Shown piece by piece: positions 23,693 through 51,015 of a DNA stretch of 64,000 bases. How positions within the stretch are numbered: position 1 is the stretch's first letter; every line of letters starts with the position of its first letter. The position numbers were made by a program, and so were the translations under genes. The stretch is from Schmidtea polychroa (taxonomy: Eukaryota), in assembly GCA_044892525.1 (NCBI GenBank), contig CM097887.1, positions 13,330,001 to 13,394,000 on the forward strand, given 5' to 3'. A model generated the notes under the pieces. The model was not told where the DNA came from and did not search any database. It was given only the letters and a program-made list of their open reading frames with translations.

Positions 23693-24313
23693 CTACGACT
23701 GTAGGATGAGTATTATCGCTGACTGGGTTGTCCGTTGGAGTTTTACTCGGCTTAGCAGATGTTCGCTCACGTTGCCTTTTCTTACGCTCGGCACGCGATA
23801 GCTGTTTGCGTTTAGGTTTTCCGGCAGTTGAGACATGCTTGATGTTGATGCACTAACGGTCGGCGCCTTGCTAGAACCCATAAATATGACGCCTGACCGT
23901 TTGGGAGAAAGTTCCGTTTCGACACACTTCAGACAAGGTCTCTTGACGGGAGGTGACGATTTTGAAGAAACATCGTGATGGGGTGGAAAAAGGTTGTCGG
24001 CTTCTTTAATGGGAATTTGGACAATCTTTCGTGTGGTGGCTGCCTGGAGATAGACTTTATGCAGCGCTTCGGACTGCTCTTTGATCAGACTTCTTTGGGC
24101 ACGGCTCTCAGAGATTAGAGCGTCCCGACAGTGCTCGATGCGATACAGCTTTTTCCGTGTTTCTTTCATCTGAGTAGGGCTAAACCAAGTGCCCTCCAAC
24201 TCATCTATCTTCCTTTTATACCGCCCGATCTGGGCTTGCAGATCTTTGATAATTGCATTTTTGTCCGAGCAAGAGAAGCAAGGACGCAAAGTGGGTTTAG
24301 TCGATGGCAACAT
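23693..24313 (-). CDS. Hypothetical 206-aa ORF in a GC-richer island (coiled-coil-like; possibly a retroelement accessory ORF)
   Basis: Open for 206 codons with markedly higher GC than flanks; no recognisable family motif; TTG start. Confidence 0.3.
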   Translation of the reverse strand: MLPSTKPTLRPCFSCSDKNAIIKDLQAQIGRYKRKIDELEGTWFSPTQMKETRKKLYRIEHCRDALISESRAQRSLIKEQSEALHKVYLQAATTRKIVQIPIKEADNLFPPHHDVSSKSSPPVKRPCLKCVETELSPKRSGVIFMGSSKAPTVSASTSSMSQLPENLNANSYRVPSVRKGNVSEHLLSRVKLQRTTQSAIILILQS

Positions 24314-24852
24314 TTTGAATAGCTAAACAGAAGGAACCATGATTACTACCATATATTATATTCACGAAATCGTTGTTAGAGTGTGGGGTGGGTTACTATC
24401 GGACATTCGATGATAACTCGTTTGGAATAGATGAGAGAAAAGAAAAGACCTTCCCCTAGATTAAGGTATTAGTAAAATAATCGTTTTCCCAGGAAAATTA
24501 CTGGTCTTACTATATATATCATTGCATTGCCGGATACATACTGGTTATCAAAATCCTGAATTAATTGATTGATTGCTATCTTAATTTCTCTAAAGTTTTC
24601 CAAACTAGTTATTACTACCGACCCCTTAATATACAGTACCGCATATTACCCCAAATTAATCGTTCCCGAAACATACCTGAATATCGTTCGCTACCTTTGA
24701 GTACAGTTTAAAAATACCTTTGATTAGCAAACTAAGTTTTTTCATTATCAAAATGTGCGCAATTATCAATAAGACCAGGGGTCTCAAACACGCGGCCCGC
24801 AACGAAAAAACATAGTTTTGTAATTTAACCAAACTTATTTAACAATTAAAAT

Positions 24853-30990: not shown

Positions 30991-33397
30991 TGTTTATTTA
31001 TCGATTATGTAAATAATAAGTTTGTTTAAATATTCGTTATTCAATTTTAAATTTCAATAAAGATTATAATGGATAATATGTTCTGTTTTATGGTAATTAA
31101 TTAAAAGAATTTACATAAAACTGGGCAATTTCGCCACACAGCAAGAACTGTTTGTAAGCTACACTCTGCCCATTGTGGTTCACACACACGACTAATCGCA
31201 TTTTTTCGCTTTTTTATACATTATTTATAAAAATATAATTTATATAATAAATATATTAAAATGATAAATTAATATGAGTTGCTAAAAGTTAAATTACAAT
31301 TTTAAGATATCTTTGTAAAAATTGGATTGCAACACCAGATTTTCTTACATTACATTAGCTTAGCCGGACAAAATGCAATTAAATGATGTTTTTAAATAAT
31401 TATTCCAATTTCCAAAGGTTTTTATCAAATTCACTTGAAAAGGGTAGTGCCGAAAATTCGTGAATATCAAAAACGAACTTAATTATATTAATTATAGTAA
31501 GATATATACAATTAACGGTAATATTTCCCAGCTGCAAAAGATCTATAAAATAATACATAGTTCGTAAAGCTCGATTTGTTAAAAAATAACCAAACCACTT
31601 AATTTCGGTATTTATGATTATGGAAATTTTACAGCTTCAATCAAATATTTTCTAATTTTTTATTTCTAATTTGATTTGTTAAGAAATTTGTTCAACTATT
31701 CTAACGCAAGAAAATCTAAAATGCAAAGGCATTAATAGTTCAAAGTTCATTTTACAAAATCTAACAAATCAGACATTGGTCGATTCTTTTTTGCTAATCT
31801 ATAAAATAAATATTTTTGTAGTTATCAAAATTTCATTTCCTCTTACTTTATCGATTGATTTTGAAATAATTTTTGGTATGTGACAACGAAAACAACATCT
31901 TTTTTTTTAAATTAATTTTTTAATTAATAATCATTCATATTGCGTTTGGAAAAAAGGATTTTCAACGTTTTAGCAATCCGATAAACGATTACTTTTTTGT
32001 CCTCAAATCGACACGTCATTTTTTTTCACTTTCAAGTTCAGTGACATGAGTTTTAACTTTTTTCTTAACTTTTCCAATAAAGTTTAATAAATCTGACTGC
32101 CTTTACATTTTTAATGGGTAAATTTATTATGCAATTATAAAAAATAAATTGCTAAACATACATATTAGGATACGTGTATGCGTAAATCATCTTAATAGGC
32201 GAAATTTGCTTGACTGGGATTTTAAATCGTTCTGTACTCTGTATGATACAGAGAGACCAGTAACTTGCTCTCTAGCATTCCGTCTCATAATCGAATCTGT
32301 TTCCTGAAGTACAACTCTGAACTTGATTTATCCTTAAGATTTAAAACTTCAAACTTATCAATTTTAGAGTTTCTTTTGAATTAATTTGATACATGTAGAA
32401 TTCAGAGTTACTGTAATGTTCTTAAATTATTCATAAATGTGCAAAATGTTGTGAACATTTGAATTTTGAATGTTTTTAAATAGTTTGAGTGCTAAATTGA
32501 AGGTATGTGGATTGTTGTTGTTTTCAAAAGTATAAAATAGTTAAACTAATAATCTAAATAAAGCTGATTTAAGAATTTTTGAAAATATTTCTTTAAAAAG
32601 TTTCAAACTGAAAAATAATCGATTATTTAAATAAAATTTACATTTTTTAAAATTAATAGAAATGTTGTAATTTGTTTATTAAATTTATTTTTAGTTTTTC
32701 TATCATATTTGATAATGAAAGTAAAACTTGAAAATATATTGTGAAATGTATATTTGAGTGGTGTTTTTAATGAAAAAAATCATTGCTATATTTATTTAAT
32801 TATGTATGGATAATATTAATTATATTCTTTTTTATTTCTAAGTAAGGGTACGTGACGTCTGTCCATTTCGTTTAGCGTATGTCGCGCTTGAAAATGATAT
32901 AAAGAGACTATATAGCGATAATTTACCATAGTAAATTATCGCTATACAAATATTGAACAAAAACAAAAAAATCGATAAGAAGAATTAGAAATTCAAAGAT
33001 AAGAAAACAGAAAAACAGAATATTTACAGTCGGAAGTCCTGCTAAGCACCTATTAAAAAGCCATTCACAAGATTACTACAAAAGAAAAGGAAAACATATA
33101 ACTCTACTAGTTAATATATCAGTACAATATTTTAAAAATCGGGAACTTCAAAGTTAAAGAAAGAGGTCGTATGATAGATATATTTTTGACGCTAAGCAAA
33201 TTCATCCAAAAATTAATCGAAGAAATTTCAAGCTCAAGATTCTTTATCGAATCCTTCACCTCTATTATATAAATAAATTCGCTATTTGCGTTGGATCTTC
33301 GCAGTCAACTGTTCTGCAAATTCTGATATCATATCTATTTTCTGCAAGTAGGTAGTTATGTGCACTCTAGATCCATGTGCACTCTAGATCCAGATAC

Positions 33398-33437
<40 letters not shown>

Positions 33438-33994
33438 AAACCCCCCCCTACTTTTTTTTTTTTTTTTTTAATTTTTTAAAAGACCCCCCCCCCCATATTT
33501 TTTTTTTAAATTTAAATTTTTGTTTTAATTATCGATTACGTAATAATTTTATTTTTTGTTTTAATCATCGATTACGTAATAATTTAAAATTTTTTTAAAA
33601 CATCGATTACGTCATTGATTTTAATTTTTTATAAGAATTTTTTATGTCATTATACTTGAAATTTAATTCTCTGTTAAATGAGACTATGATGTAATCAAAA
33701 TTCTGAAATTTCATTTTTAGTACACGATTTTTAAATTTACACATCTTTTTAAACAAATTGAGATATTTTCACTCAAACAATATATAGATAGAATTTTAAT
33801 CTCTATAAAATGACATCAATATTTACTTCAAATTCATAATCATAACACCTTAAACAATGTATTTTTCAGCCAACTTTTACATACACACATATTTTCAACT
33901 TTTAAAAAATACAAATTAATCATCTATACTTAACTCATAGTAAATAATTATATTAAAAGACATATTAAAAGATGTATTAAAAACTAAACATTTA

Positions 33995-34468
33995 TTAAAA
34001 TCCCAGAGAAATTCGAGCACTATCTAATTTCCAAATCGGTGATATGACATCTTTCTCATCCATTTTATATCCCTGTATTGAAATATTTACAAACCAGCTT
34101 TCACCATCTTTATATTCAATTTCTTCAAAGGCATCATGAAAACGAGAATTTCGATTGTTGATGATTATATTTCCATTGCAACTTAGATTCTTATTGATTT
34201 TCCCCAACACTTTATTTACTGCAACAACATCTTCTTTTGTTATATGAGCAATGAAACTTGAATATTGCGACTTGATCAATTTGACTGCATTTGAGAATTT
34301 ATATGGAATTTCGTCTACCAAGAAATATATCTTATGGTTATGATACATTTGTACTGGTTTCACATCATTCTTGGCATGCTTCGTCTCAGTTATTTTCTTA
34401 ATTGGGCTTGTTTCTTTCAATAAATTAGAAAATGTTTTCTCACCAAAAACGTTCTTCTTGGATTGCAT
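33995..34468 (-). CDS. 157-aa TIR-encoded protein, left copy (unknown function)
   Basis: Translation identical to 47214..47687; ATG start, upstream TATA box, AATAAA overlapping the stop. Confidence 0.8.
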   Translation of the reverse strand: MQSKKNVFGEKTFSNLLKETSPIKKITETKHAKNDVKPVQMYHNHKIYFLVDEIPYKFSNAVKLIKSQYSSFIAHITKEDVVAVNKVLGKINKNLSCNGNIIINNRNSRFHDAFEEIEYKDGESWFVNISIQGYKMDEKDVISPIWKLDSARISLGF

Positions 34469-34505
34469 TTTTTAAAAATAATGACTATGATGTCATTTTA
34501 TCTCT

Positions 34506-34513
34506 CTTTTATA
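34506..34513 (-). promoter_or_regulatory. TATA box (TATAAAAG) of the left TIR gene
   Basis: Consensus TATAWAAR ~40 nt upstream of the ATG. Confidence 0.6.
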
Positions 34514-34826
34514 CTTGTGTATAACCAATCAAATGAATGCATTTGTATTGCAAACAACATGCATGTGTCATTGACCTTCGTGTGTGACCTTTGTATGTGA
34601 CCTTTACATTTGTGACCTTTGTATGTGAGTCATACATGGTTTGCATATGTATTGCAGATGTATTGCAAATTAGTTAATTAAAACGTGTACTAATTAGTGT
34701 GATATTAAAAATATTATACTAATACATGTAACATAAAAATACTATAACAACATAAAAATAGTGTACTATCACAAGTAACAATATAAAAATTTTGTAACGA
34801 TTAAAAATAGAATGAAAACAAATTTT

Positions 34827-37800
34827 TTATATCATAAAATTTATTAATTGACAACCATCATCATTTGGAAAATGAGGATGATATTGCAAATCTTCATCTG
34901 GATCAACTATGGGCAGCAACATTTCTTCATCAGAATCATCAGCCATAACCATACCACCCCCCCTATAATGACCATACGCATAACTTTTATTTTTAAGTAC
35001 CCAATTGCGCTTATCGTCAGCATTAGTTAAAGCCCTCTTATTATTTTTAATACTGAAAAGTTGATGGTTTTTACTCGTTATCCTAAATTGTGGTACTGTA
35101 TAAATCTCATTATTATTATAACAATTCAGATACGACTGATGAGTTAGTCCAGTATCTTTCATTGTGACCCCCTTCGCTTTCATACATCCCTTACTACCCT
35201 TCATGCTATAACATTTTGGTCTTAAAAATATCCATTCATCATATCCAAGACCTTTGCTTTCATCTTTAAATTTCCCTATTACAGAGTCAAGGTTTTTTGA
35301 ATATAATGAATGTGTTGGCTCGTAATTAGAGGTATCTAATAAATTATCCCTTATCATTGCGGGTAAAAGAGAATTTAATTTGCAATTTTTAATTTCCAAA
35401 AAGAACGAATCTGTATCCCCAGCAACTATATTAATTTTACAATTAAATTCTATACGATATTTTTCTAAATCAATGTACTGAAGTTGGTACATACGAAGTT
35501 TTGATAAATCCAAAACTGATTGACCAATATAACTTGGTCTATTTAAACATATTAAATCTTTTCTTAATAGAACAGATATTAAGTCGTCATCGATTTTAGT
35601 AGTCCTTTTGAAATTAGGTTTAGAACAATATGTTAATACCTTTTGGGCTGAATTGCAAAGTCTTAAATTAATTCGTTTCTTTAGGTTTTCGACAGTCTTA
35701 CCGTATAGACTGTTGTTTAATAGTTTAAAATAATTTTTATCTAATGTGTTTGTTGATGATGCCCTAAGTTGTGTGTTAGTATCTATATAATTTTTAAATA
35801 TTGATGACTGTTCAAATTGTATAGCGCGATGAATTTTAGTGACCTTTACCCCAATATTTAGATAAAGCTGGAGAAGTCTCCAATGAACTACATAATTCTT
35901 TTTAGGATAGTGGGTAAGCATCAACTTCTCCACTTTGGATCCTGGTGCACAGATCTTTTCAGCTGCAACAGGGAAATCGTCAAGCTTATCATGAATCGAT
36001 TCTGGAATTTCCAAATCGACTTCAACAGTATAACCGAATGTGAGTAATTCCAAGTCAACATTCATACAATCATCCAAAATCTTATTTAATTTTATTTCAT
36101 CGTTAATCCACTTAAAATTACCATCTGGTAGTTTCTGGCTAAGTGCCCAACCATATAGGTTGTTAATATCTATATAGAGCAACTCTGTGTTTTCATCTGA
36201 TTTTACGTAATGTTTATTAACAAATGTTAATCCCCCTCGAATCCCACCCTCAAAGAAATTATAAATCTCCATGTCTTGGATCAACTCAATTGGATGATCT
36301 AAAGTCATGAGTGCAGAGTTCCATGACATACCGGGAATGCCTAAAAAGTTTAAGGGTTCCAATCTGTTATGAGCTATTGATTTTGCTCTAAACTGTTGGA
36401 AATAGTCCGCAAGTAAAAAGACATCTAATTTTAAATATATCATCATGTAATCCAAAAGTGAATTACAATTATGGTCATCCCAAATGCGCTGAGCCATATC
36501 ATATTCTACTTCAGTAACACCATCCCAAATTGGAGGTAATTGGGGAGTTCCCTGAAGCACTTCTAAACTAGTTGCAAAATCATATGGGAATATGCCTTTA
36601 CTATTAACAATTACTCCGTTAAATTCAGAATTAGTCAATGGAAATGTAGTTAATGTTTGTACAGCATTTTTTAAGGAATCGTTAATAAATTGACAAGAAT
36701 CGATAAATTTTATAGTTAATCCATCAATTCTTGCATATAAACTTAAAAATTTTTCACTAGTTATAGGAATACAATTAATATTCCATGATTTAAATTTACC
36801 TAAGCCAAATTTGAGAATATGATGGAGATCATATCCTCTCAAATTATGAAAAATAACTGGTAAAACCGGTCTAATTCTTCGAGAAAGATTACAAGTTGAG
36901 CAAGCTGCACCTAAATATTTACCCGAAAAATGGTCATGATCTCTTACTGGATTTACTAAAGTTTTCTTACACAAATGACAATTTACAGCCGAAGAAAAGT
37001 TTATTTTGTCAATACTACTAAAAAACATCATTTTCCTATATCGTGTTTCAAAATATGGAGCCACTATTTGCTTACCAATTTCTTCAAGTTCATGAAGAAA
37101 CTGTTCAACACAATCCAATCCTATAAAACTTTTATAAAATTTATCCCCTGTAAAATTATTTATAAAAACAAAACCAGCTGAGATTGGTAAATGTTTTTGA
37201 TAGTATTTATTATCTTTAGGTAAAATTGCCTCAAAGTCGGCATAAATAACAAATGGAGGAGTGACAATCTTTGACCAATTTGTAAAACTAAGATATTTAT
37301 CTTCGGGTAATGTAAAGAGAGTGGTCCCTAACTGATTTTTATCACACAAACCCTTGTGTCTCATGAAAGAATTAGGATTTCGAAAACCATTTAAGCATCT
37401 CGAACACCATTTACTACAAATCCTAACAGCAGTTACACTAGAATCGTTACAATTCAAAAGTCTATCAAGATTAGTAACACCTATGTAATGATGTGTCAAA
37501 ATCTTCTAACAAAATTAAATTAATTGTTGTCCCCCCAATAACTTTAGATCGATAAATTATGTCAACATAAGGATGTTTCATAACTTCTTCAGTATTCTTA
37601 ACATCATTTAATATATTTTCGTTATAAGTTAAAACATTTATCGATAAACCAGGGTTTTGGGATTCAAATTTAGAAATATTACAAAGGCGCATAGGGAGAT
37701 CTGCAGGATCGAATTTTAATTCCGAAGTATTATAATTATATGGCTTAGATCTATTGGTACTAATACTATTATATTTCAAAATAGATAAAATACTATATAG

Positions 37801-38303
37801 GAAGCATTCATCATTTGTATTTTTAACATTAACAGTACATTTTTTATTTAATAATGTTTCTGGTGTAGGAATATATCCACGGCCAGTTAATCTGGATATT
37901 TGCGAATATTTTGTTATTATAAAACTAATATATTCAATTTTATGTATAACCCAGTTGCTTCCCTTTTCGTTAACTTTAATTATTTTTTCATTTAATAAAT
38001 CAATACCATCTTCTAAGAAGGTATCACTCATGGGTCTAGCAGAATTTGAAATAACGAATGATTGAAATTCGTCATCTTTTACAAATTCCACTTTCAAACA
38101 AAATTGAATTTTTATTGAACCCATCTCGGATGAAACTTTATTTAATTCATTTATTAACTGAGTAGGGATCGAAACTGTTTTTAAATTTAAGGATGAAACA
38201 TCCATTTTAACTTCTGCGTGTGTTTTATTTAAATCGAATATGGTTTCAGGTTCAAGTGAACCACCTTGTTGATTAATAATGACTTCTGTAGAAGTTGATG
38301 TAA

Positions 38304-38369
<66 letters not shown>

Positions 38370-38742
38370 AAAGTGAATAAGAGTTAACTATCAAAGGCAT
38401 GACCTCATCATCAGAGTCTGAAATAACGATAAGATCTTTTTTAACAAATTTAGAGGGTTTTAGATTAGGTAAATTAATTTTTCTTTTATTATTTACATTA
38501 GGCTTATTATTATTATTATTAGTACTTGTAGTATCATTATTATGATTTATAGCGGGATTATAGGTATTGGAAATATTATTTTTTAATAAATTAATAAGGT
38601 CTTTTTTCTTTAAATTATACTGAGTTAAATGATCCCTATGTTGATGATAAAACTCCATGTATGTTACAGTCTCGGGGTTCATACAAACAGGGCAAATAAA
38701 AAAGATGGTATGATTATGGCTATGTTTGTAATATTTTTCCAT
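34827..38742 (-). CDS. polB: Protein-primed family B DNA polymerase (N-terminal/TP region, OTU-like protease, exonuclease with EndoVII-like Zn finger, polymerase), interrupted by a 2-nt frameshift at ~37490
   Basis: YIDINNLYGWAL, KLLNNSLYGK, AGDTDSF, CHLC..RDHDH..G..C..CN; ORFs 34827..37499 and 37471..39000 join to ~1305 aa from the ATG at 38742 if 2 nt are restored; the true start could lie in the N-gap. Confidence 0.93.
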
Positions 38743-39325
38743 TATGAAATCACAATCATCATGTAATGAACTATTACAATAATTTTGNNNNNNNNNNNNN
38801 NNNNNNNNNNNNNNNNNNNNNNNNNNNNNNNNNNNNNNNNNNNNNNNNNNNNNNNNNNNNNNNNNNNNNNNNNNNNNNNNNNNNNNNNNNNNNNNNNNNN
38901 NNNNNNNNNNNNNNNNNNNNNNNNNNNNNNNNNNNNNNNNNNNNNNNNNNNNNNNNNNNNNNNNNNNNNNNNNNNNNNNNNNNNNNNATATTTTTATCAA
39001 AAAGGTAATTTTACTTAAATATATTTAACCTATTACATAATAGTTTAAACATACTTAATGCAAAATATATTTACCCTATTACGTAATAGTTTAAACATAA
39101 TCAATACAAAATATATTTAACCTATTATATAATAGGTTAAATATATTTTCAATCAAAATAAATTATTGATAAAAATAAATTTAACTTGTTACATAATATT
39201 TCATTATTATTATTATTATTCAAAGTACTATATTATAATTATTGTATTTAAAGTATTAATTATTATTAAAATAAAAACATTAATAAATCTTTTAATAAAA
39301 CCTTATAAAAATTCATTAAAAATCT

Positions 39326-39704
39326 TTAAATAAAAATGAAAATCTTACATGTAACTTTTCTTTTTGATATTTTGCAATCATTTTTTCCATATGCAGTACT
39401 GCGCGCAATCAAATTGTTACCATTATTATTGTTATTTGTACTTGACTCGTTCATATTTCGTCCATTTATAATGCATCCATTCATGTTGTTTATAATAAAA
39501 TCTAAAAAGAATAAATAATTATAAATTTAATAATAATAACGAAATACCATTTGGCATGTTTTCACTGTTATTGTTAGATCTTTTGTTGAAATTACGATTA
39601 AGACCTATAAATTATATCAATAATAATGACAAATAAATAAATAAATAAATCTTACCATTCTTGACACTGTTTCCGCTTTGGCTTCCTTGATTATTTCTTG
39701 ACAT
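39326..39704 (-). CDS. Three-exon, 93-aa Asn-rich protein (exons 39704-39656, 39604-39548, 39501-39326), not in the ORF track
   Basis: ATG, then GTAAG..TTATAG (51 bp) and GTATTT..TTTTAG (46 bp) introns give a continuous frame MSRNNQGSQSGNSVKNGLNRNFNKRSNNNSENMPNDFIINN...; same structure in the second copy at 11443. Confidence 0.7.
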
Positions 39705-40024
39705 TTTGTTGAGTTTAAAATTTTAGGTATATAAAAAAGTGATGGTATATTTTTAAACATTGCTTTATATATCATAAATTGTGTAATATGTATTCACCCA
39801 ATAGAAATTGAGAGTATTACATGCACACGCACTATGAAATATAATTTACACACAATGTGAAATACTTTTCACACATTAGGAAGCAAAACTTACACACATT
39901 ACAAAATAAAAATTTAACACAAACTAAGAGAACATGATTAATCATGCATTTAAACTGCAATCTTAATGCATATGAGTAATAATAACAAAATTAATAATAA
40001 TATAATTTTTAATCAAAAACTTTA

Positions 40025-40444
40025 TTAATTTTTTAAATAATCTAACACAGCAATTAAACAATTTTTGTAAGCACAATTAGAATGATCACGGTAAGGACAC
40101 AAGATATTATCAGGAAAATATTCTGATAATTGGATTGAATATTTTATTAATCTTAAATTTGGGAAATAATTTTTCAAAACTGTAAGTTTATCTTGATCAG
40201 TGACATAGAAAATTCCACTTGTATCTTCTACATCTCTCAATATACATGTTGGACAAAACGAATCTTCACCTTCATACCATTCCAATCGATCTGAATTTTC
40301 ACGTCCAGCCCAAAATGGTAAATCATTAAATAACCAATACTTTGGGCGTAAAATATTATTTACATTCATAATACATAATTCTTTAATAATTATTCCACCA
40401 GCATAATCATTATAACCTACAAAGTCAATAAAATAACAAGACAT
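40025..40444 (-). CDS. DEDD-fold / Maelstrom-like small protein, probably catalytically atypical
   Basis: N-terminal IDFVGY...IIKELCI and C-terminal CPYRDH..CAYKN; homologous pseudogene at ~9756-10160. Confidence 0.55.
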   Translation of the reverse strand: MSCYFIDFVGYNDYAGGIIIKELCIMNVNNILRPKYWLFNDLPFWAGRENSDRLEWYEGEDSFCPTCILRDVEDTSGIFYVTDQDKLTVLKNYFPNLRLIKYSIQLSEYFPDNILCPYRDHSNCAYKNCLIAVLDYLKN

Positions 40445-40476
40445 TTTTATTAATAAGATTTATTAAACTACATCGT

Positions 40477-40858
40477 TTATACATATAACATTGAATTTAG
40501 CCATGCAAGGCAATGTTGACCACATGTTTGAGTCATTGGATTTTGATAACGAATTTTATTATACAGAAGGGGTTTACCAACTGTTTGTAGTTTTGTTATC
40601 ATTATATCTGGATAATAATATCCCATCGGATCAAAAACATGTATTTTATCAGGTTTCACATATATTGCAATCCAATGTTCTCCTTCAAGATTTGATGATT
40701 GAGTATTGACGACTATAGCTTGGTTTGCGTTCAGATAGGGGATTTTATCTAATGGGAATACTCCAGTAAACTGATTCCCCAACAACATTTTTCCAATTCG
40801 ATTAACCTGAATAGAACTAATCAAATAAAATTAATTATTAATTAAAAACTTACTCCAT
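40477..40858 (-). CDS. Adenain-like cysteine protease (Maverick PRO) with a short 5' intron
   Basis: GVFPLD, GEHW, FDPMG, QNP..QTCGQHC catalytic motifs; ATG GA|GTAAGT...GATTAG|T TCT gives MDSIQVNRIGK (37-bp intron), or ATG 40874 with a 47-bp intron gives METIYYGVNRIGK. Confidence 0.9.
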
Positions 40859-40923
40859 AATAAATTGTTTCCATTGTTTAATTCATTTATACTACGTTTA
40901 AACCAATACAGTTTGAAATACTT

Positions 40924-42147
40924 TCAAACCAATACTGATCGACTTGCAGTAATTTGTAATTCTCTTTCGAAAACTCCGTATACTATTACATAAACCGATT
41001 CCTCGAGTGATTTATTAAACTTTACACTCAATTTTAAATTTCCTTGTTGTGGTAATTGACTTTGATTCAAATCAAAATCTGGAGACAAAACAAATGTAAA
41101 GAATGGATATTTATCTTTAAAATCTTCAAGTGTAATCCCACAGTTCATGTTTTTATCCAAATACCCCAGATTTCTCACAATACTTTGCATATACGTTGTA
41201 GTATAATCATTTGTGTCAAAGTTTTGTGTATATGTTTCTCGATAGTCATTATTTTTGGCTAAAGTGATTGATGTAATATCCAAATGTTTAAAGATTGAGC
41301 TGGATTCCTTATATGTTCCCTTAAATTGAGATTCAGTTTGAAATGCCACTAAAACGAAATTTGGTAATCTTTTGTCAATAAATAATTGTTCCTTGTAAAA
41401 TGACGATGAACCTTTACTGATTGTAAAGTCGACAGTTTCTTTACTTCTAATTGGATATATAGCATTTTTAGAATTTAACCCTATTTGATGCCCTGCTAAA
41501 ACTGATGGTTCAACTCGAACTCTGCGAATCATTAATTTTGCTTCCAATACCTTTATCTTTGGTTCATCTGTTAGCGAATGTATACTGAATGATGATGGGT
41601 TTCTTTTCAGTGTTACATTAACATTAACTCCTGGAAGTAAATATTTTGGTTGATCCATAAAATCTATTTGCAATGACGAACATAGGGAAACTAATTTAGA
41701 ACCGGCAATTAATGCTGTTCTTTCCTTATCAGATGGAATGTAACCCATAGGAGCCAGACAAATGTTTTTACTATCTCCATTATAATTTAAAATAGTTTCA
41801 ATTAAAGCTTTTTGTGTATATCTTCCGTTTCCACCTTCAATCTTTTGACTATTGAGTCCAACAATAACATCACTAAAAAGTGTATGGAACAAGTAATTGT
41901 TAGCTTTTGCATCTGAAGTAACCGGTAATTCCTTTCCATTATTATTTGTAACCTTTAATTTAATGTAGAGTAATGTATCATTCAAATCGAGATATTCAGT
42001 ATGAGAACCAGTTATTTTGAATTCAATATCGCTTTTATTATCAACAATTGAATTAAAGGGGAATACGTCTTCAAATGTCGCATATTCTATAACCGCCTGA
42101 GGAGTCGGTCGATCAAAAATACATAATTCAGTTTTTCCACAAATCAT
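40924..42147 (-). CDS. Major capsid protein (double jelly-roll, Maverick PY/hexon-like)
   Basis: KTELCIFDRPTPQ..IE, IEFKITG..EYLDLNDT, PFFTFVLSPD match the Maverick MCP pattern; position next to PRO. Confidence 0.88.
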   Translation of the reverse strand: MICGKTELCIFDRPTPQAVIEYATFEDVFPFNSIVDNKSDIEFKITGSHTEYLDLNDTLLYIKLKVTNNNGKELPVTSDAKANNYLFHTLFSDVIVGLNSQKIEGGNGRYTQKALIETILNYNGDSKNICLAPMGYIPSDKERTALIAGSKLVSLCSSLQIDFMDQPKYLLPGVNVNVTLKRNPSSFSIHSLTDEPKIKVLEAKLMIRRVRVEPSVLAGHQIGLNSKNAIYPIRSKETVDFTISKGSSSFYKEQLFIDKRLPNFVLVAFQTESQFKGTYKESSSIFKHLDITSITLAKNNDYRETYTQNFDTNDYTTTYMQSIVRNLGYLDKNMNCGITLEDFKDKYPFFTFVLSPDFDLNQSQLPQQGNLKLSVKFNKSLEESVYVIVYGVFERELQITASRSVLV

Positions 42148-42530
42148 TTTTCGAATATAGTTCCACGTCCTGTCATTCGTTTGTTTATATACCTTCGATG
42201 TTTTCTTCGCTTAGGCTGTGGTTCAGACTCTTCAGATTCTGATGCTTCATTTGATCCCATTACATTTGGTAATGAAGAAATCACATCTGGTAATGCCTCT
42301 TTGAATTCAGATATGGCATTGGATTTTAAAGATGGTAATATTTTTGCATTATTCATTATTACATCTTTAGCTGTTTTCATACCAAAATTTCCTATACGTT
42401 TAAGAATAGGAAGAGCAAACCGACCAATAGTTTTTAACCATCCGGATCCATATTGTTTGCCAACAAAATATGGTAATTCGCCACCAGTTTGACTATTGGC
42501 ATAAAGAGAAACTATATCAGGATTAGACAT
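42144..42530 (-). CDS. 128-aa putative virion core / membrane-lytic protein (adenovirus pVI-like layout)
   Basis: QTGG and QYGSG motifs, amphipathic segment WLKTIGRFALPILKRIG, basic NLS-like PKRRKHRR, C-terminal MTGRG. Confidence 0.65.
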   Translation of the reverse strand: MSNPDIVSLYANSQTGGELPYFVGKQYGSGWLKTIGRFALPILKRIGNFGMKTAKDVIMNNAKILPSLKSNAISEFKEALPDVISSLPNVMGSNEASESEESEPQPKRRKHRRYINKRMTGRGTIFEK

Positions 42531-43539
42531 CTTGTTTTCTAAAATGTAAAGTTACGTGTGTTTTTGAATCGTTTGCAAATCGGATTAAATTTCCGCTATC
42601 ATCGCGTATATTAATTTCTATATTGTTTATACATGTTCTCCCAACTGGTAAATACATAGGATTTTCTATTTGTATTTGCACAACTTCATCTTGCTCATAT
42701 TTCTTAATCCACACCGCTTTCAGAAGAGGTACCAGTGAATCACCAACATTTATCGGATCAATAATATCGCTATAGATGAACATTTGTTGATGATGATTAA
42801 ATATTTTTCCTTTACGAACTCCACCAAATTGTTTGTCATTATATAATTGTTTTTGTAATCCAAATGTGTTGACCAAGTTTTTATCAAATATAACTTCTTT
42901 AATGTTTTCACCGAGACTGAATTTGAAGACATTTTCATTCAGTTCAACAGACTTGAAAATATGGGGGCAATTACTTGTTAAATAGTTGGTTAAATCTTCA
43001 AGCTTCTTTATGTATAAATCATCAGTAAATGTGAAAACTGAATCTTGTAAACAATTGTACGTTAACTTCATTCTAATTACATTATTCATAATGCCATCAA
43101 CATACGGCGGAATTACAATTTGAAATGTATCAGTGTGACTTATAATTGTTGGTTCAGGAACTCCTAATCTTTTTACGCTTGCATCTTCAAATGTTATCTC
43201 GAATGGATGGTAATCGCAACAAATATTTAAAACTCCCTTGGTAATATACATGTAACAATCATTATTTAATTCTTTTATTGTCGTTTCATCATCTTCGGGT
43301 TCAATAACATAAAAGCTGCTAACTGATTTCGATGCAATTTCTTTATATTCAATCTTAGAATTACTGTAAAATGGAAATGTATTGTACACAAATGTGTAAT
43401 CAAGCAAAGCAACTTCCCACATGTCATGCAGGTAAATGGGATTTTGTAACTCAACGATAAATTTACTAGCCTCATTATTCGGATGAATTAATGGACAGCT
43501 ATTGCTTGGTAAAATAGTGAAAAAATTGTTTCTATTCAT
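42523..43539 (-). CDS. Minor capsid protein (penton, Maverick PX)
   Basis: FFTILPSNS..HPNN..F.V.L...WEVAL; C-terminal FIYSDII.P..VGD..PLL, YLPV, IEINIRD, LHFR. Confidence 0.88.
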   Translation of the reverse strand: MNRNNFFTILPSNSCPLIHPNNEASKFIVELQNPIYLHDMWEVALLDYTFVYNTFPFYSNSKIEYKEIASKSVSSFYVIEPEDDETTIKELNNDCYMYITKGVLNICCDYHPFEITFEDASVKRLGVPEPTIISHTDTFQIVIPPYVDGIMNNVIRMKLTYNCLQDSVFTFTDDLYIKKLEDLTNYLTSNCPHIFKSVELNENVFKFSLGENIKEVIFDKNLVNTFGLQKQLYNDKQFGGVRKGKIFNHHQQMFIYSDIIDPINVGDSLVPLLKAVWIKKYEQDEVVQIQIENPMYLPVGRTCINNIEINIRDDSGNLIRFANDSKTHVTLHFRKQDV

Positions 43540-44555
43540 TCAATTTGAGATGCTGATATCCAAGTTGGGTTTTGATATCCATGCCATTTGACGTAATATT
43601 GTTTATCCTTACCTTTATATTTTGATTTAAGAATTTTTTCAATTCTAAAGACAGATGGTGTCGGAATAACTTGCAGTTCCTGTTCGTAAAATTTACCCTG
43701 GATTTCATTATTATCAATATCTTTAATAACATACATAACGGGACTCTGTTTCGTATTAATCTTCGATATTTGAAAGACTTCGTCACTCCAGTTGTTGTCA
43801 AAATTTTTAATGAATGGTGAAGCCGATATTTTACTTATTCTAACATGATCACCAACTTTATATTTAGGTTTCTTAATTTTTGTTACATCTTGTTGTGATA
43901 ATAATATTTTCATACTATTTTTAGATGTTACATCAATCGGTCTCATACCCTTTAGACCTCCATGTTCGGAATGATTGTAACTATGAATTATTTTCGGTAA
44001 AACATTTATCCAAGTTTTGTTACCTTGATGTACAAAATATTTTTTCAATCGATCTCTTAATGTTCTATTAAACCTTTCCACATGAGCAGCTTTGAATTGT
44101 GAAAAAACAGAGTAATGATTTATTCCCTTTAGATTTTCTTTAACTTTGCTATTATAAAATTCTTTACCCAAATCAGTTTGTAAATTATCTGGTTTACCAT
44201 TTTTAAACATTGTTTTTATTGCAACAGCCATTTCACTAGCAGATTTGGTTTTCAATGGTATAGCTCGAGCAAATCTACTAAAGACATCAATACATGTCAA
44301 AATATATTTGTAACCCTTATTAATTTTAGAAAATGGAATCATTTCCATTAAGTCCATTTGCCATAAATCATTAATACCATATGTTTTATATGCTCTTGTG
44401 GGAAACCGTTTCAACATTGGCTTGTTTAAATTGTATGCCAGTTGACTCGACAACCATTTTTGAGTCTCCTTTTTTGATTTGGGTACTTTTTTCTTTAACT
44501 TTTCGACTCCACCGAAACCGGCTGGATCTTTTGGGTTTGTCCATATCTTCTCCAT
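43536..44555 (-). CDS. Retroviral-type (rve) integrase with C-terminal chromodomain
   Basis: WQMDL, LQTDLGKEF, HVERFNRTL DDE triad; FRIEKIL...YYVKWHGY..PTWI chromodomain. Confidence 0.95.
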   Translation of the reverse strand: MEKIWTNPKDPAGFGGVEKLKKKVPKSKKETQKWLSSQLAYNLNKPMLKRFPTRAYKTYGINDLWQMDLMEMIPFSKINKGYKYILTCIDVFSRFARAIPLKTKSASEMAVAIKTMFKNGKPDNLQTDLGKEFYNSKVKENLKGINHYSVFSQFKAAHVERFNRTLRDRLKKYFVHQGNKTWINVLPKIIHSYNHSEHGGLKGMRPIDVTSKNSMKILLSQQDVTKIKKPKYKVGDHVRISKISASPFIKNFDNNWSDEVFQISKINTKQSPVMYVIKDIDNNEIQGKFYEQELQVIPTPSVFRIEKILKSKYKGKDKQYYVKWHGYQNPTWISASQIE

Positions 44556-44653
44556 TACAACACGATGATTTAAAATTTAGAATAAGGTTTGGTAAATGTC
44601 CCATAGGTAATTGACCCATTGTTTATGATGATGATATTAAAATAATTCAACGT

Positions 44654-44986
44654 TTATGAAGGCTCACCTAATAAACCAGATCCACCTAATAAAGATAATG
44701 CGATTGGTATCAAAGCTGATATAAACCCCCCTTTCTGTTTGTATATAATTTTTCGCATTATACGTTTATTTTTTGTATTTACTAACGATAAAAGTGATTT
44801 TTTATGGTTTTGCAATACAAGTTTTTTCGCTTTACTAATGTCAACATTGCCACGCACAACATTAACAATAATTTCAAGCAAATCGTCCACAACAAATTGT
44901 GGGAATGATTGTAAAATACTTGTTCTTTTCATGAGTGGTGCTTTTATCAATGCATTAAAATATGGTATACTACGTTGTAATTTCAT
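44654..44986 (-). CDS. 110-aa conserved Maverick small protein with QKGGF motif and hydrophobic tail
   Basis: LLEII.NVVRGNV..HKKSL..QKGGFISALIPIAL resembles the small ORF common upstream of Maverick integrases. Confidence 0.7.
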   Translation of the reverse strand: MKLQRSIPYFNALIKAPLMKRTSILQSFPQFVVDDLLEIIVNVVRGNVDISKAKKLVLQNHKKSLLSLVNTKNKRIMRKIIYKQKGGFISALIPIALSLLGGSGLLGEPS

Positions 44987-45019
44987 TATTGAAATTTATT
45001 TTTTATCGTTTAACTTTGT

Positions 45020-45190
45020 TTATAATTTAATCCATTTTTTAGGTGTTTTGATTGATCTTTTCTTCAACGTTTTCTTTACAGATTTCTTTACTATCTTTTT
45101 TATAGATTTCTTTACATGTTTCTTTACACGTTTCTTCTTCACTTTGACTAATTGATTATCATGTTTAATTAAAACTTTCTTGAACCCCAT
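45020..45190 (-). CDS. 56-aa Lys-rich basic protein (histone-H1/protamine-like), below the ORF-track cutoff
   Basis: MGFKKVLIKHDNQLVKVKKKRVKKHVKKSIKKIVKKSVKKTLKKRSIKTPKKWIKL*: 23 Lys, 2 Arg, 1 Asp; fills the gap between ATPase and the 110-aa gene on the same strand. Confidence 0.75.
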   Translation of the reverse strand: MGFKKVLIKHDNQLVKVKKKRVKKHVKKSIKKIVKKSVKKTLKKRSIKTPKKWIKL

Positions 45191-45214
45191 TTTTTATTAT
45201 AATAGATTCATAAT

Positions 45215-45838
45215 TTAATTTTGTTTATAAACTGTTACACCATCTTTATTAAAAATATCTGTCCTAATACGTACATCATCCATGCATTGCTGAGTAAAAT
45301 CAAAGAATAAATATCCATGGGGTATTTTGGTTGCATCTTGAAATGATTCAATTAGAAAGTTACGATTGTTTGGATATGCTTGTCTTGCAATGAAATCAAT
45401 AACAGTTGCATCCCTCGGATTTTTGAAAATAACAAGATATTGAACATTCAAGTTCCGAGTTCGATGACTCCCACCCTGATGAAACAGATTTTGTGTTATA
45501 AAAATAACTGTTACACCATGATGTCGAGATATTTTTGTAAATAAATTATTAAAATCTTTTTCTTTGTTAGCTTCTTGATATAAATCATCAATAATAATTA
45601 CATCACCCTGTTGTAATCTAGATGACCAGTTTTTATCAAATCCTTTTATTATTGTCATTTTTAATTTACAGAATTGTTCTTGCGTCAAACCATGTTCGTC
45701 ATCAGCACCCCTATGCCAATATATTTTATTGAATTTTGACTTGAACATTTTTGATTGTAATAATTTACAAACAAATAAAGTTTTACCACTACCGCTTGGA
45801 CCTACAATTTGATAAACAGCATCATTTCTTAATTCCAT
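45215..45838 (-). CDS. A32/FtsK-HerA-like genome-packaging ATPase
   Basis: Walker A GPSGSGKT, Walker B IIIDD, SRH..VTVIFITQNLF. Confidence 0.93.
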   Translation of the reverse strand: MELRNDAVYQIVGPSGSGKTLFVCKLLQSKMFKSKFNKIYWHRGADDEHGLTQEQFCKLKMTIIKGFDKNWSSRLQQGDVIIIDDLYQEANKEKDFNNLFTKISRHHGVTVIFITQNLFHQGGSHRTRNLNVQYLVIFKNPRDATVIDFIARQAYPNNRNFLIESFQDATKIPHGYLFFDFTQQCMDDVRIRTDIFNKDGVTVYKQN

Positions 45839-45923
45839 TTTAAAAAATTAGTTATATATATTAATATTGTTTATATTTGTTTTAATTCATCAGTTTACTT
45901 GATGAAAAATTATTTGAAAAAAT

Positions 45924-46388
45924 ATGATTAGTAATATAAATTATAAAGGTAGATTTGATGTATCTCATATGGAATTTCCAAAAGGTAAACCACAACAAAT
46001 TGTTGACAGAAGCGGTAAACATTCAATAATATTTTTCAAGTCAGGTAAATGTCGAATAATGGGATGTAAAAAATCGATCAAAGTTGAAGATTTAAAATAT
46101 GAAATCAAGGATTTACAAATTCAATCGATTACAGTTACTGCTGATATTGAATCAAATGTTATTTTAAATGATTTATCAAAGTATATGAAATGTATTTACG
46201 AACCAGAAATATTTCCGGCATTAAGATATATAAAATACAATCCAATGTGTGTTAACATATTCAATAGTGGTAAAGTAGTTATACTCGGTATAAAGACATT
46301 GGATTATCATTTACTTGTTTATAAAATTATTAAAGATATTAAATCAGTAATTGATGACATGGAATTTTTAAAATTTTTCCTAAACTAA
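45924..46388 (+). CDS. Compact TATA-box-binding protein (TBP) homolog
   Basis: Two TBP repeats: IFFKSGKCRIMG and IQSITVTADI...YEPEIFPALRY...NIFNSGKVVILG, against canonical IFSSGKMVCTG / IQNMVGSCDV / YEPELFPGLIY / IFVSGKVVLTG. Confidence 0.88.
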   Translation: MISNINYKGRFDVSHMEFPKGKPQQIVDRSGKHSIIFFKSGKCRIMGCKKSIKVEDLKYEIKDLQIQSITVTADIESNVILNDLSKYMKCIYEPEIFPALRYIKYNPMCVNIFNSGKVVILGIKTLDYHLLVYKIIKDIKSVIDDMEFLKFFLN

Positions 46389-46499
46389 AGTTGCAATCGT
46401 CCATGCATGAATCCAATTGGTTGATGGTGTGTATCGAAATAAGTATATATATATATATATACAATAACACTTTAATCATTTATTAAGTACTAGTTGAGA

Positions 46500-46877
46500 A
46501 TGTCAAATTTAACTGTAAATGGTATATTTTGATTATTGCTTTTTATATTTATAATTTTAAATGTTTTAGAAAAAATGATACAGATTCTGATTGGGAAAAT
46601 GGGGGAATTATATCCGAATATTTTAAAGGATCTAATCTATTGGGCACCAGAGATTATTCCATTCAGAATATGGATGTCTACCGGAATAGATTTGAATGTG
46701 GTTTTGTTTGATCACTTGAGGACGTTAGAAGACGATCTTGACCCTGTTGACAGCAGCAAGCCATCAGTATGCCCATACAAATGCGAAGGATGTATTGATA
46801 GAGAGAAGAAGTATAATATATGGATATTAAGGAAAGAGTTGAGAAAAGCTCACTTTTCATTAATTGTAGATCACTAA
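46500..46877 (+). CDS. 109-aa hypothetical protein with a 48-bp 5' intron (exons 46500-46521, 46570-46877)
   Basis: ATG TCA AAT TTA ACT GTA AAT G|GTATAT...TTTTAG|AA AAA ATG joins in frame to ORF 46536..46877; YWAPE motif, CPYKCEGC, AATAAA overlapping the stop. Confidence 0.65.
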
Positions 46878-47049
46878 TAAATGTTTAGTTATTATAATAC
46901 AGTGTTTTCTAATTTTATATTGTTACTTGTGATAGTACACTATTTTTATGTTACATGTATTAGTATAATATTTTTAATATCACACTAATTAGTACACGTT
47001 TTAATTAACTAATTTGCAATACATCTGCAATACATATGCAAACCATGTA

Positions 47050-47110
47050 TGACTCACATACAAAGGTCACAAATGTAAAGGTCACATACAAAGGTCACAC
47101 ACGAAGGTCA
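47050..47110 (+). promoter_or_regulatory. Cluster of AAAGGTCA (x3), GAAGGTCA and TGACTCA motifs upstream of the TIR gene (mirrored at ~34572-34632)
   Basis: Motifs read directly from sequence; they match nuclear-receptor extended half-site and AP-1 consensus; function inferred. Confidence 0.4.
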
Positions 47111-47168
47111 ATGACACATGCATGTTGTTTGCAATACAAATGCATTCATTTGATTGGTTATACACAAG

Positions 47169-47176
47169 TATAAAAG
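47169..47176 (+). promoter_or_regulatory. TATA box (TATAAAAG) of the right TIR gene
   Basis: Consensus TATA ~40 nt upstream of ATG 47214. Confidence 0.6.
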
Positions 47177-47213
47177 AGAGATAAAATGACATCATAGTCA
47201 TTATTTTTAAAAA

Positions 47214-47687
47214 ATGCAATCCAAGAAGAACGTTTTTGGTGAGAAAACATTTTCTAATTTATTGAAAGAAACAAGCCCAATTAAGAAAATAACTGAGACG
47301 AAGCATGCCAAGAATGATGTGAAACCAGTACAAATGTATCATAACCATAAGATATATTTCTTGGTAGACGAAATTCCATATAAATTCTCAAATGCAGTCA
47401 AATTGATCAAGTCGCAATATTCAAGTTTCATTGCTCATATAACAAAAGAAGATGTTGTTGCAGTAAATAAAGTGTTGGGGAAAATCAATAAGAATCTAAG
47501 TTGCAATGGAAATATAATCATCAACAATCGAAATTCTCGTTTTCATGATGCCTTTGAAGAAATTGAATATAAAGATGGTGAAAGCTGGTTTGTAAATATT
47601 TCAATACAGGGATATAAAATGGATGAGAAAGATGTCATATCACCGATTTGGAAATTAGATAGTGCTCGAATTTCTCTGGGATTTTAA
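47214..47687 (+). CDS. 157-aa TIR-encoded protein, right copy (unknown function)
   Basis: Translation identical to 33995..34468. Confidence 0.8.
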   Translation: MQSKKNVFGEKTFSNLLKETSPIKKITETKHAKNDVKPVQMYHNHKIYFLVDEIPYKFSNAVKLIKSQYSSFIAHITKEDVVAVNKVLGKINKNLSCNGNIIINNRNSRFHDAFEEIEYKDGESWFVNISIQGYKMDEKDVISPIWKLDSARISLGF

Positions 47688-48248
47688 TAAATGTTTAGTT
47701 TTTAATACATCTTTTAATATGTCTTTTAATATAATTATTTACTATGAGTTAAGTATAGATGATTAATTTGTATTTTTTAAAAGTTGAAAATATGTGTGTA
47801 TGTAAAAGTTGGCTGAAAAATACATTGTTTAAGGTGTTATGATTATGAATTTGAAGTAAATATTGATGTCATTTTATAGAGATTAAAATTCTATCTATAT
47901 ATTGTTTGAGTGAAAATATCTCAATTTGTTTAAAAAGATGTGTAAATTTAAAAATCGTGTACTAAAAATGAAATTTCAGAATTTTGATTACATCATAGTC
48001 TCATTTAACAGAGAATTAAATTTCAAGTATAATGACATAAAAAATTCTTATAAAAAATTAAAATCAATGACGTAATCGATGTTTTAAAAAAATTTTAAAT
48101 TATTACGTAATCGATGATTAAAACAAAAAATAAAATTATTACGTAATCGATAATTAAAACAAAAATTTAAATTTAAAAAAAAAATATGGGGGGGGGGTCT
48201 TTTAAAAAATTAAAAAAAAAAAAAAAAAAAAAGTAGGGGGGGGGGTTT

Positions 48249-48287
<39 letters not shown>

Positions 48288-48782
48288 GGTATCTGGATCT
48301 AGAGTGCACATGGATCTAGAGTGCACATAACTACCTACTTCTGCAGTATTACTTATTTTTTTGATTAATAAAATTCGTAATTTTATTTAACTGTTATTTT
48401 GCACCTTTTTCTACACAACACGCACCCCGATTGTCCCGCCACATTTTTTAACGGTGATTCTATCGGGTCCTTCAGATCTCCTTACACACGCATGCACTTA
48501 CCAACAAAAATTTATAATATAATCCATATACAACACATATATAATATAATACCATCGAAACCTCCAATCATAATAATTATGTATGGATTTTGTTTATTTT
48601 ATTTATTATTATATGCCAAAATATATTTTTAAAAAGTCGAAAATTAGGTTAATTATTGGATTTTATGTTATTATTACACACCGCAACAATAGCCCAATTT
48701 GAATGTTCTGAACTATAAATCGCAAAGGTTCGTCATAAGTGGAATTAGTAATTTAATGTTTTATTATTCAAGAATTTGAGTA

Positions 48783-50507: not shown

Positions 50508-51015
50508 TTAATATATAAATCTTATTTTCTGGCAATTTTGTGTTGTTTTTTTTTATCTTTTTAAATTTAGTTTAGTTGGTATTGTAAAGTGTTTTTAATT
50601 TAACTTCACTTTGCTGTATTCCTTGGTTTGAACATTTTAATGGGACAAGTAAGGGAAAACAGTATAAACGATTATTGGTTACTGATATACAGATTGAAAC
50701 ACCAATTTTTGGCAAAGTCATGCCTCGAAATCGGTTCAGGCAAATATTAAAATCGTTACATTTTTGTAATAATGATGAAAACGCAGATCGACTCTTTAAA
50801 ATTGAACCAGTAGTAGAATATTTTTTAAATAAATTTTATACAGTTTATAAACCAAAACTAAATCTTTCTTTGGATGAGGCAATCATACCCTACAGAGGCC
50901 AGCTAAGTTTCCGTGTTTACAACCCAGGAAAGATTAATAAATATGGCATGCTTGTCAGAATGCTTTGCGAATCTAAAAGTGGATACATAACTAACTTTAA
51001 AATCTATAGCGCTAG

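Follow-up and report, generated by a model that had tools for sequence, protein, structure and literature searches.

The window analysed here is a stretch of 64,000 nucleotides from Schmidtea polychroa (GenBank assembly GCA_044892525.1, contig CM097887.1, positions 13,330,001 to 13,394,000 of the forward strand), and at 33347-48339 it contains a Maverick/Polinton of 14,993 bp whose ends and target-site duplication (TSD) are exact (Table 1). We focus on this element, on the reduced TATA-binding protein that it encodes (mini-TBP), and on the promoter word TATAAAC, through which, as we propose, mini-TBP would turn on the packaging and capsid genes. A first-pass annotation, made from the letters alone, had described a complete, young Maverick with a perfect 6-bp TSD and near-identical terminal inverted repeats (TIRs). 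Measurement agrees with it: TCTGCA stands on each side of the element, and the TIR pair of ~1.43 kb comprises 1315 nt that align ungapped at 99%, together with pairs of 129 nt at the terminus and of 40 nt on the inner side. Aligned globally, the two TIRs share 1401 identities in 1408 columns, with six of the seven mismatches in the last 14 columns, at a short indel; the differences are ones of homopolymer length, one substitution and this indel at the inner edge.

Table 1. Features of the element (window positions, with strand and profile matches where assigned)
Feature	Position	Strand	Profile match
Left TSD, 6 bp	33341..33346	+	
Left TIR, ~1.44 kb: AGT-type end, 16-nt tandem pair, C/T-tract repeats, three 35-36-nt repeats, SSB gene and its promoter	33347..34788		
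TIR gene, left copy, predicted T7 gp2.5/Enc34-type OB-fold ssDNA-binding protein (SSB), 157 aa	33995..34468	-	
pPolB long exon from first ATG (exon likely begins slightly upstream): Zn-finger-like N-part, Asn run, putative TP/vOTU region, endonuclease VII insert, exonuclease and polymerase motifs; frameshifted	34827..38742	-	
Three 46-nt repeats, imperfect palindrome, in predicted PolB intron 3	39017..39154		
Predicted PolB exon 3, Asn-rich, basic motif at end, phase-1 donor	39349..39501	-	
Predicted PolB exon 2 (introns 39605-39655 and 39502-39547, both phase 1)	39548..39604	-	
Predicted PolB exon 1	39656..39704	-	
MAEL-like/DEDD-fold protein, 139 aa, conserved Cys/His	40025..40444	-	
Adenain-type C5 protease, predicted 5-nt first exon and 37-nt intron (40817-40853)	40477..40858	-	PF00770 1.1e-4
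Major capsid protein (MCP), double jelly-roll type by homologue, 407 aa	40924..42147	-	
128-aa conserved open reading frame (ORF) between penton and MCP	42144..42530	-	
Minor capsid protein/penton, PX-type N-terminal motif, 338 aa	42523..43539	-	
RVE integrase with C-terminal chromodomain, 339 aa	43536..44555	-	PF00665 1.3e-10, chromo 8.4e-6
77-aa ORF overprinting integrase start	44386..44619	-	
110-aa conserved ORF, adenovirus pX-like C-terminus	44654..44986	-	Adeno_PX E 0.084 (below cut-off)
56-aa basic peptide, candidate core protein	45020..45190	-	
A32/FtsK packaging ATPase, 207 aa	45215..45838	-	PF04665 4.8e-6
Mini-TBP, 154 aa: C-terminal repeat and stirrup intact, N-terminal repeat shortened	45924..46388	+	PF00352
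~109-aa ORF, predicted mini-exon and 48-nt phase-1 intron (46522-46569), C-terminal Cys, CCAAT and TATA upstream	46500..46877	+	
Right TIR	46913..48339		
TIR gene, right copy, identical protein, predicted SSB	47214..47687	+	
Right TSD	48340..48345	+	

The element and its sister copies

The element resembles the animal Mavericks/Polintons (adintoviruses) in its TIRs, 6-bp TSD, length of ~15 kb, pPolB, RVE integrase, A32 ATPase, adenain, double jelly-roll MCP and penton gene at a distance of one gene from the MCP. It differs from them in a lineage-wide TBP gene, the word TATAAAC, a protein gene duplicated in the 1.4-kb TIRs and spliceosomal introns predicted in PolB and the protease. Planarian Polintons of 14.9 and 15.9 kb are tabulated in PMC4028283 (Table S1), to which the present element is likened by this listing and not by sequence. 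Pfam profiles score above their cut-offs for the integrase, the A32-type ATPase, the C5 protease and TBP, and scans of the element's proteins against PHROGs and NCBIfam gave matches for TBP, the ATPase and endonuclease VII only. The insertion interrupts a genomic repeat, both flanks being contiguous in 5 of 11 paralogous loci (L146, L147, L148, L152, L154); L151 also crosses the insertion site, with a partial left flank. A joint that skips the whole element in contigs of two sequence sets (X3, X5) resembles an empty allele, but the paralogues of the flank repeat give the same join.

PolB is split into two frames near 37470-37505. No other ORF falls short of its length in the sister copies; the 200 N letters within the element aside, the morphogenesis genes and the integrase are intact and the lesion falls in PolB alone, as had been reported for this DNA. 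The sisters come from a TBP search of the genome (G000) that returned 4171 candidates. Among the 150 that were scored, 51 have 93-100% identity (the present copy included), 6 have 79-90% and 93 have 63-66%. We took as sisters 20 of the 22 other matches with 100% TBP identity, the remaining two lying on small contigs. Their substitution divergence from the present copy has a median of 0.037%, with values of at most 0.11% in 17 and of 0.67-0.98% in three. Perfect 6-bp TSDs, each different, bound 15 of the 17 sisters in which both ends were found. The first-pass annotation had proposed a search for sisters with intact PolB, and 14 of the 20 carry it as a single ORF of 1303-1311 aa; nor are all copies decayed, all tested ORFs being full length in 13.

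Because 14 sisters are unbroken, the PolB break is specific to the present copy, whether as a real lesion or as an assembly error. The second case, in which the present copy would be whole, draws on those 14 sisters and on the mere 1-7 substitutions in 9.6 kb that separate the present copy from most of them. However, further sisters carry different breaks of their own (five broken, truncated or not covered, one shortened), so real lesions do occur in young copies, and we regard an assembly error as unlikely. A copy with truly broken PolB would rely on its sisters for replication in trans.

Six copies of the 63-66% class represent three further subfamilies with the same gene order; all six hold the TBP gene and five the TIR gene, and the MAEL-like gene occurs in one of the three subfamilies sampled. 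Compared with these subfamilies and two metagenome elements, dN/dS is 0.20-0.29 for the MCP, 0.06-0.12 for the ATPase, 0.25-0.50 for the penton and 0.16-0.34 for TBP, with synonymous sites near saturation. Judged by these ratios (0.06-0.50), purifying selection acts on the genes for capsid, penton, ATPase and TBP, and the distinct lineage proposed at first pass holds up as a young, complete, multi-copy element. For MCP, ATPase and penton such selection would fit a particle stage without being proof of one.

Other remnants were seen beside these copies. Pairs of TIR-gene copies in G000 are spaced ~0.7 to 28 kb apart, which points to numerous derivatives that have kept intact ends but lost or gained internal sequence. 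Within the window, a copy of this Maverick family at 9116-15876 has decayed and been rearranged; it comprises the MCP end, the protease, the MAEL-like gene and PolB, 87-95% identical. A degenerate PolB at 61400-63089, with 44-64% protein identity, belongs to a more distantly related Maverick. At L061:716-5764 (G000:C2, inside a 65%-TBP element), a second Maverick type with a PLA2-like ORF, its own ATPase, capsid-like ORFs and a 39% integrase lies beside or within the PolB of a subfamily copy.

Mini-TBP and the word TATAAAC

The TBP homologue reported at first pass is secure, with a PF00352 match of 2.7e-15 (56.4 bits against a cut-off of 22.9). Its 88 homologues are of similar length, and 40 of 60 metagenome TBP loci have another Maverick gene on the same, mostly short, contig; for this reason mini-TBP is a gene of the lineage and not a recent local capture. 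A search of viral_contigs for relatives of TBP gave 46 pattern matches, none of which was confirmed. Across 60 aligned rows, E93-P94-E95 is kept in 59, F97 and F113 in all 60 and F38 in 59, and F18 is conserved as well. The E93-P94-E95 stirrup is presumably the TFIIB contact. Compared with cellular and archaeal TBP (PDB 2z8u, 1mp9, 1qn3), mini-TBP has a C-terminal repeat with the YEPE.FP stirrup and both Phe residues, and N-terminal strands with one Phe, whereas its N-terminal repeat is ~25-30 aa shorter and lacks the first stirrup motif. That motif is absent throughout, two stirrups occurring in none of the 60 rows, and in place of two full repeats with four intercalating Phe only three such positions map (F38, F97, F113). 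A quick tree of 127 rows places the six two-stirrup TBPs beyond a branch of length 0.97 (SH-aLRT 99); the short forms constitute a large and diverse set.

The accessible parts of PMC8502044 name TBP only in figure legends, for MELD viruses and related elements in a non-animal section. A literature search, with subscription papers, Repbase entries and some supplements outside its scope, found no TBP in animal Mavericks, no promoter word of their own and no introns in their core genes. In the literature searched, neither a mini-TBP conserved through a lineage, with a word to match, nor core-gene introns have thus been found for animal Mavericks.

TATAAAC occurs 11 times in the element, and five sites fall 37-42 nt before an ATG, in windows that make up 1.8% of positions. 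They precede the ATPase (45875, at -37), the basic peptide (45229, -39), the 110-aa ORF (45024, -38), the MCP (42189, -42) and the MAEL-like gene (40481, -37); a sixth lies 101 nt before the 128-aa ORF. The site before the ATPase is intergenic, with no same-strand gene upstream, which favours a promoter over a poly(A) signal. In relatives, counted after de-duplication in a window 25-60 nt before the start and set against 2-mer block shuffles, the word stands before the ATPase in 12 of 14, the 110-aa ORF in 9 of 9, the MCP in 7 of 10 and the MAEL-like gene in 7 of 10 (0.1-0.2 expected). Before the TBP genes of relatives it is found in none of 40; a canonical TATA precedes 19 of these genes (2.1 expected) and CCAAT precedes 14 of them (4.2 expected). 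In the present copy, CCAAT and TATA together precede the SSB gene (-61 and -45), PolB exon 1 (-98 and -67) and the ~109-aa ORF.

Two further observations concern TBP and its partner. In one metagenome relative an ORF (L120:1710-2171) lies between TBP and ATPase, and we take its C-terminus to be RING/IAP-like. Thirteen TFIIB-family matches, intronless-looking frames of 301-310 aa, form two clusters at G000:C1:23.8-24.2 Mb and C3:38.2-39.1 Mb, and host TFIIB is encoded in separate exons; a possible expansion of TFIIB-like genes is of interest beside a mobile TBP.

Replication genes, predicted introns and accessory proteins

The gene duplicated in the TIRs was rightly noted at first pass, both copies encoding the identical protein, but its placement in a transcription-modulating module was not upheld, since the product is predicted to be a replication protein. 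A large protein search found no sequence homologues of it. From an alignment of 21 rows, taken from neighbouring genes in the fetched loci, an AlphaFold2 model was obtained (pLDDT 86). In a VIA comparison with 48,161 chains the top four rows were Enc34 SSB, DUF2815, T7 gp2.5 and CP312R of African swine fever virus (ASFV), at Z 7.2-7.7, root-mean-square deviation (rmsd) 2.6-4.2 and 101-128 aligned residues, with the next row at 6.1. The top Foldseek match was again Enc34 SSB (E 0.016, probability 0.99; Atlas 0.89). The Z-scores below 8, which are moderate, and this E-value weigh against the assignment, yet the top rows all belong to one family, and the model predicts a T7-type SSB. With members of that family (Enc34 5odk, DUF2815 4klk, T7 1je5, ASFV CP312R 8hw5) the TIR protein shares the OB fold in the same overall arrangement over 101-128 residues; it differs in being 9-12% identical, in its basic, disordered N-terminus and in its two identical gene copies. 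An acidic C-terminal tail is a feature of T7 gp2.5-type SSBs; the TIR protein family ends a few residues past the last strand and has no such tail. The gene has a dN/dS of 0.15 and is present in 20 of 60 metagenome loci, usually adjoining TBP. An SSB of this type would supply the missing piece of protein-primed strand-displacement replication.

PolB contains exonuclease and polymerase motifs in order, their identities being presumed by us, and an endonuclease VII insert that scores below the Pfam cut-off. A pPolB with N-terminal TP and vOTU regions has been described (10.1101/2024.03.18.585575). The Alpha adintovirus PolB class is defined by pfam03175; neither PolB piece of the element gave a PF03175 match at E 0.1. 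PDB sequence searches with PolB and with the MCP profile gave no hits. Cores of the TTACGTAAT type, like those of the 46-nt repeats in predicted intron 3, were also seen in the 35-36-nt repeats of the TIRs.

The first-pass annotation had listed spliced genes among the accessories, and the splice signals are indeed there; the main one, rather than being a separate gene, in all likelihood forms the 5' end of PolB. This reading of the Asn-rich exons at 39349-39704 follows from a phase-matching acceptor 56-62 nt before the first PolB ATG in all five loci of the other three subfamilies, against a background of 6% for a 7-nt window; the stretch from acceptor to ATG is in each of them an open frame, conserved and rich in Cys/His. 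An acceptor within 50-70 nt was present in all 17 sister stretches that hold the PolB start; the present copy is unreadable there. Short exons with similar donors stand at the same place in the three other subfamilies. If the exons instead formed a small gene of their own that stops shortly after entering the third intron, and PolB started at ATG 38742, this would suit the read-through past the third donor, which stops within a few codons to leave a complete ~93-aa frame, and the exon sequences, which are not alignable between subfamilies, but the recurrent acceptor and the frame behind it make this improbable. Both products could exist through intron retention.

Other core introns are predicted as well. 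The 37-nt protease intron follows five coding bases and is common to 4 of 5 subfamily loci and two metagenome loci; the spliced register places Gly at residue 10, as in six intronless relatives, and a first model (21-nt exon, 47-nt intron) was dropped in its favour. The 48-nt intron of the ~109-aa ORF lies at a shared position. Contigs of five sequence sets (X1, guessed to be RNA; X6, X2, X3, X5) show no joint at the predicted introns and run through them as DNA would, which is uninformative as to whether the genes are spliced or expressed; in X6 a loose end with a T-run falls on an A-tract of the genome and was left out of account. The accessible part of PMC8097293 describes intact vertebrate Mavericks as free of introns, and from these the present element would differ by introns predicted from conserved phase and register; introner-type introns have been reported from dinoflagellate polinton-like elements (PMC11957031). 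Conserved introns in core genes would show long nuclear residence.

The MAEL-like gene, also rightly recognised at first pass, encodes a protein whose model (pLDDT 85) has Maelstrom as its best match both in Foldseek (E 8e-4) and in VIA (Z 10.2, rmsd 3.3, 137 aligned), with DEDDh nucleases within 1 Z. Over its whole length it shares the DEDD-type fold of the Maelstrom MAEL domain (PDB 9nhs, 9nhc, 5af0, 4ybg), which however has ~250 aa against 139 here. Within the family the Cys/His residues are invariant and the Glu with the Cys/His cluster is conserved, and the DEDD set is not: the second acidic residue of motif I varies (Val here), and no later Asp is conserved, unlike the four acidic residues of DEDDh enzymes. 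We take a Glu/Cys/His zinc cluster to define the MAEL domain, and the model points to a DEDD-fold zinc protein. The present copy lacks a helix pair seen in metagenome relatives. One may speculate that the protein acts against piRNA silencing; planarian Polintons are piRNA targets (PMC8532177).

For the MCP, the double jelly-roll type is indicated indirectly, through homologue P0099 (62% identical), which Atlas assigns with a score of 0.98 (228/256 features) to a cluster in which 30% of the members carry PF21738; PF21738 matches 2 of 44 MCP homologues, at best with E 0.039. The 128-aa ORF is, we assume, 'cupiennin-like', and for the 110-aa ORF we assume a GasderminX/PZ-like identity. The position of the 128-aa ORF is that of PW (PMC8097293), and the N-terminal motif of the penton matches by eye the PX rows in the supplement of PMC4028283, as fits its place one gene from the MCP. 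In the 77-aa ORF a Met-Gly start and an S-C-C motif, kept in 7 of 13 related loci, suggest a lipidated product. The 56-aa peptide had been called H1-like. Linker histone H1 combines a globular winged-helix domain with a Lys/Ala/Pro tail; the peptide, with 45% Lys+Arg and 2% Ala+Pro, is simply basic. A further metagenome relative (L090:222-719 and 5616-7687) carries two tandem penton genes and an extra ORF that we presume to be like a ubiquitin-conjugating enzyme (E2).

Thus TBP, the MAEL-like gene, the TIR-duplicated gene, the basic peptide and the splice signals of the accessory set are all present, while the relation to H1 is not borne out and the main spliced gene is probably not a gene of its own. 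The MAEL-like and SSB-type members of the set, moreover, have precedents: MAEL and 'SSDBP' labels stand on adintovirus maps (PMC8502044, Suppl. Fig. S2; 'SSDBP' on two of them, likened to the TIR protein by label alone), and mael-linked polintons have been described (10.1101/2025.02.07.637071).

The neighbourhood of the element in the window includes host transposons, among them a piggyBac-like DDE (PF13843) and a hAT (PF05699), in stretches 50720-51145, 51417-53250, 23696-26568, 55605-56972 and 1975-3818. Other ORFs in these stretches are, we assume, akin to Ty3/Gypsy pol and to Tigger/pogo transposases.

A proposed two-step programme and its alternatives

Based on the sequence evidence and on the analogy with herpesvirus TBP mimics, we propose an early/late switch in which mini-TBP would turn on the packaging and capsid genes via TATAAAC, a reading to which we give a probability of about 0.6. 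Host RNA polymerase II (Pol II) would first transcribe SSB, PolB and TBP from host-type promoters. PolB, the protease and the ~109-aa ORF, with their predicted introns, would need the host spliceosome, and their transcription should therefore be nuclear and under Pol II. PolB and SSB would then copy the linear genome from its ends, SSB coating the displaced strand during protein-primed replication. Mini-TBP would read TATAAAC, preferring it over TATAAAAG or random AT-rich DNA, recruit host TFIIB through its kept acidic stirrup and thereby express the packaging and capsid genes late, and the integrase would insert new copies with 6-bp duplications. Binding to TATAAAC, recruitment of TFIIB, late action and the production of particles are what we infer. 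Of the transcription-modulating module suggested at first pass, a TBP with a conserved promoter word remains plausible; the module shrinks to this one gene because the TIR gene is predicted to act in replication, the spliced gene is probably the PolB 5' end and features of H1 are missing from the basic peptide.

Precedent for the logic of such a switch is ORF24 of KSHV (the herpesvirus associated with Kaposi's sarcoma), a TBP mimic with TATT late promoters (PMC12529657). The likeness to the TBP mimics of beta- and gammaherpesviruses lies in a virus-coded TBP-fold protein proposed to serve a non-canonical TATA-like word at virion genes, early genes being of host type (PMC12529657). ORF24, however, is large and, as part of a viral complex of several proteins, itself makes contact with Pol II (PMC12529657), whereas the 154-aa protein of the element is a true sequence homologue of TBP, stands alone and has kept the TFIIB-side stirrup, so that the analogy is one of function and not of membership.

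Several points weigh against the proposed switch. The word is weak before the penton (2 of 9) and the 128-aa ORF (1 of 8), with 0.1-0.4 expected over all classes, and only near-matches precede the integrase and protease. In the present copy, a TATA-like stretch lies at -71 of the TBP gene but no CCAAT within 150 nt, and CCAAT is also found upstream of the MAEL-like and protease genes. The early class consists of the TBP relatives and three genes of the present copy, with three usable SSB upstream regions; the relatives are not independent, the shuffles were of 2-mer blocks, and several TATAAAC sites lie in coding ends. The sisters, chosen for 100% TBP identity, are a sample biased to young copies. 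Moreover, with its N-terminal repeat shortened and the first stirrup motif gone, mini-TBP may not bend DNA normally. Lastly, because TATAAAC retains the core TATAAA, it may be legible to host TBP.

Two alternatives bear on the programme as a whole. The family may now be only an intracellular copy-and-insert transposon, its capsid, penton, ATPase and protease left over from a viral past or serving a particle that stays inside the cell, and infectious virions would not be made. Internal deletions or rearrangements mark many copies, as one would expect of trans-mobilised transposons, and Maverick particles were unobserved as of the accessible text of PMC8097293. Yet the low dN/dS of MCP, ATPase and penton and the recurrence of the whole morphogenesis module in the same order in distant loci speak against it, and a dedicated TBP with a matching word before virion genes is needed by a virus with a late phase and not by a plain transposon; we hold this alternative to be possible, if the lesser choice. 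Host TBP might, alternatively, read all promoters including TATAAAC, leaving mini-TBP as a decoy or competitor that sequesters TFIIB or a regulator of TBP, or that blocks host TATA promoters, and so shifts transcription in favour of the element. Host TBP may tolerate C at position 7, a matter on which the literature search found no paper, and together with the TATAAA core the near-universal E93-P94-E95 beside a reduced N-terminal repeat would suit such a role. It would, however, leave the near-invariance of the three DNA-intercalating Phe positions and the DNA-facing strands unaccounted for, and a pure decoy has no need of a word that is fixed before four gene classes in place of the host consensus and avoided before TBP. 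We therefore find a decoy quite unlikely, and retain the early/late switch as the preferred reading.

Taken further, and at present only tentatively, this widespread lineage of 15-kb animal Mavericks may be one of nuclear DNA viruses with the smallest known viral late switch, a single 154-aa TBP with its own word that works through host TFIIB and Pol II and arose independently of the herpesvirus mimics, with at least a dozen coding-complete copies spreading in this genome. The gene control of Mavericks and the formation of their particles are open questions in the field. The switch, with one protein and one 7-nt word, lends itself to a direct test on a small scale, and since the family is very young and abundant, its natural activity should be observable. 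If the proposal is true, an early/late cascade and particle formation would be there to be seen in the coding-complete copies of the genome.

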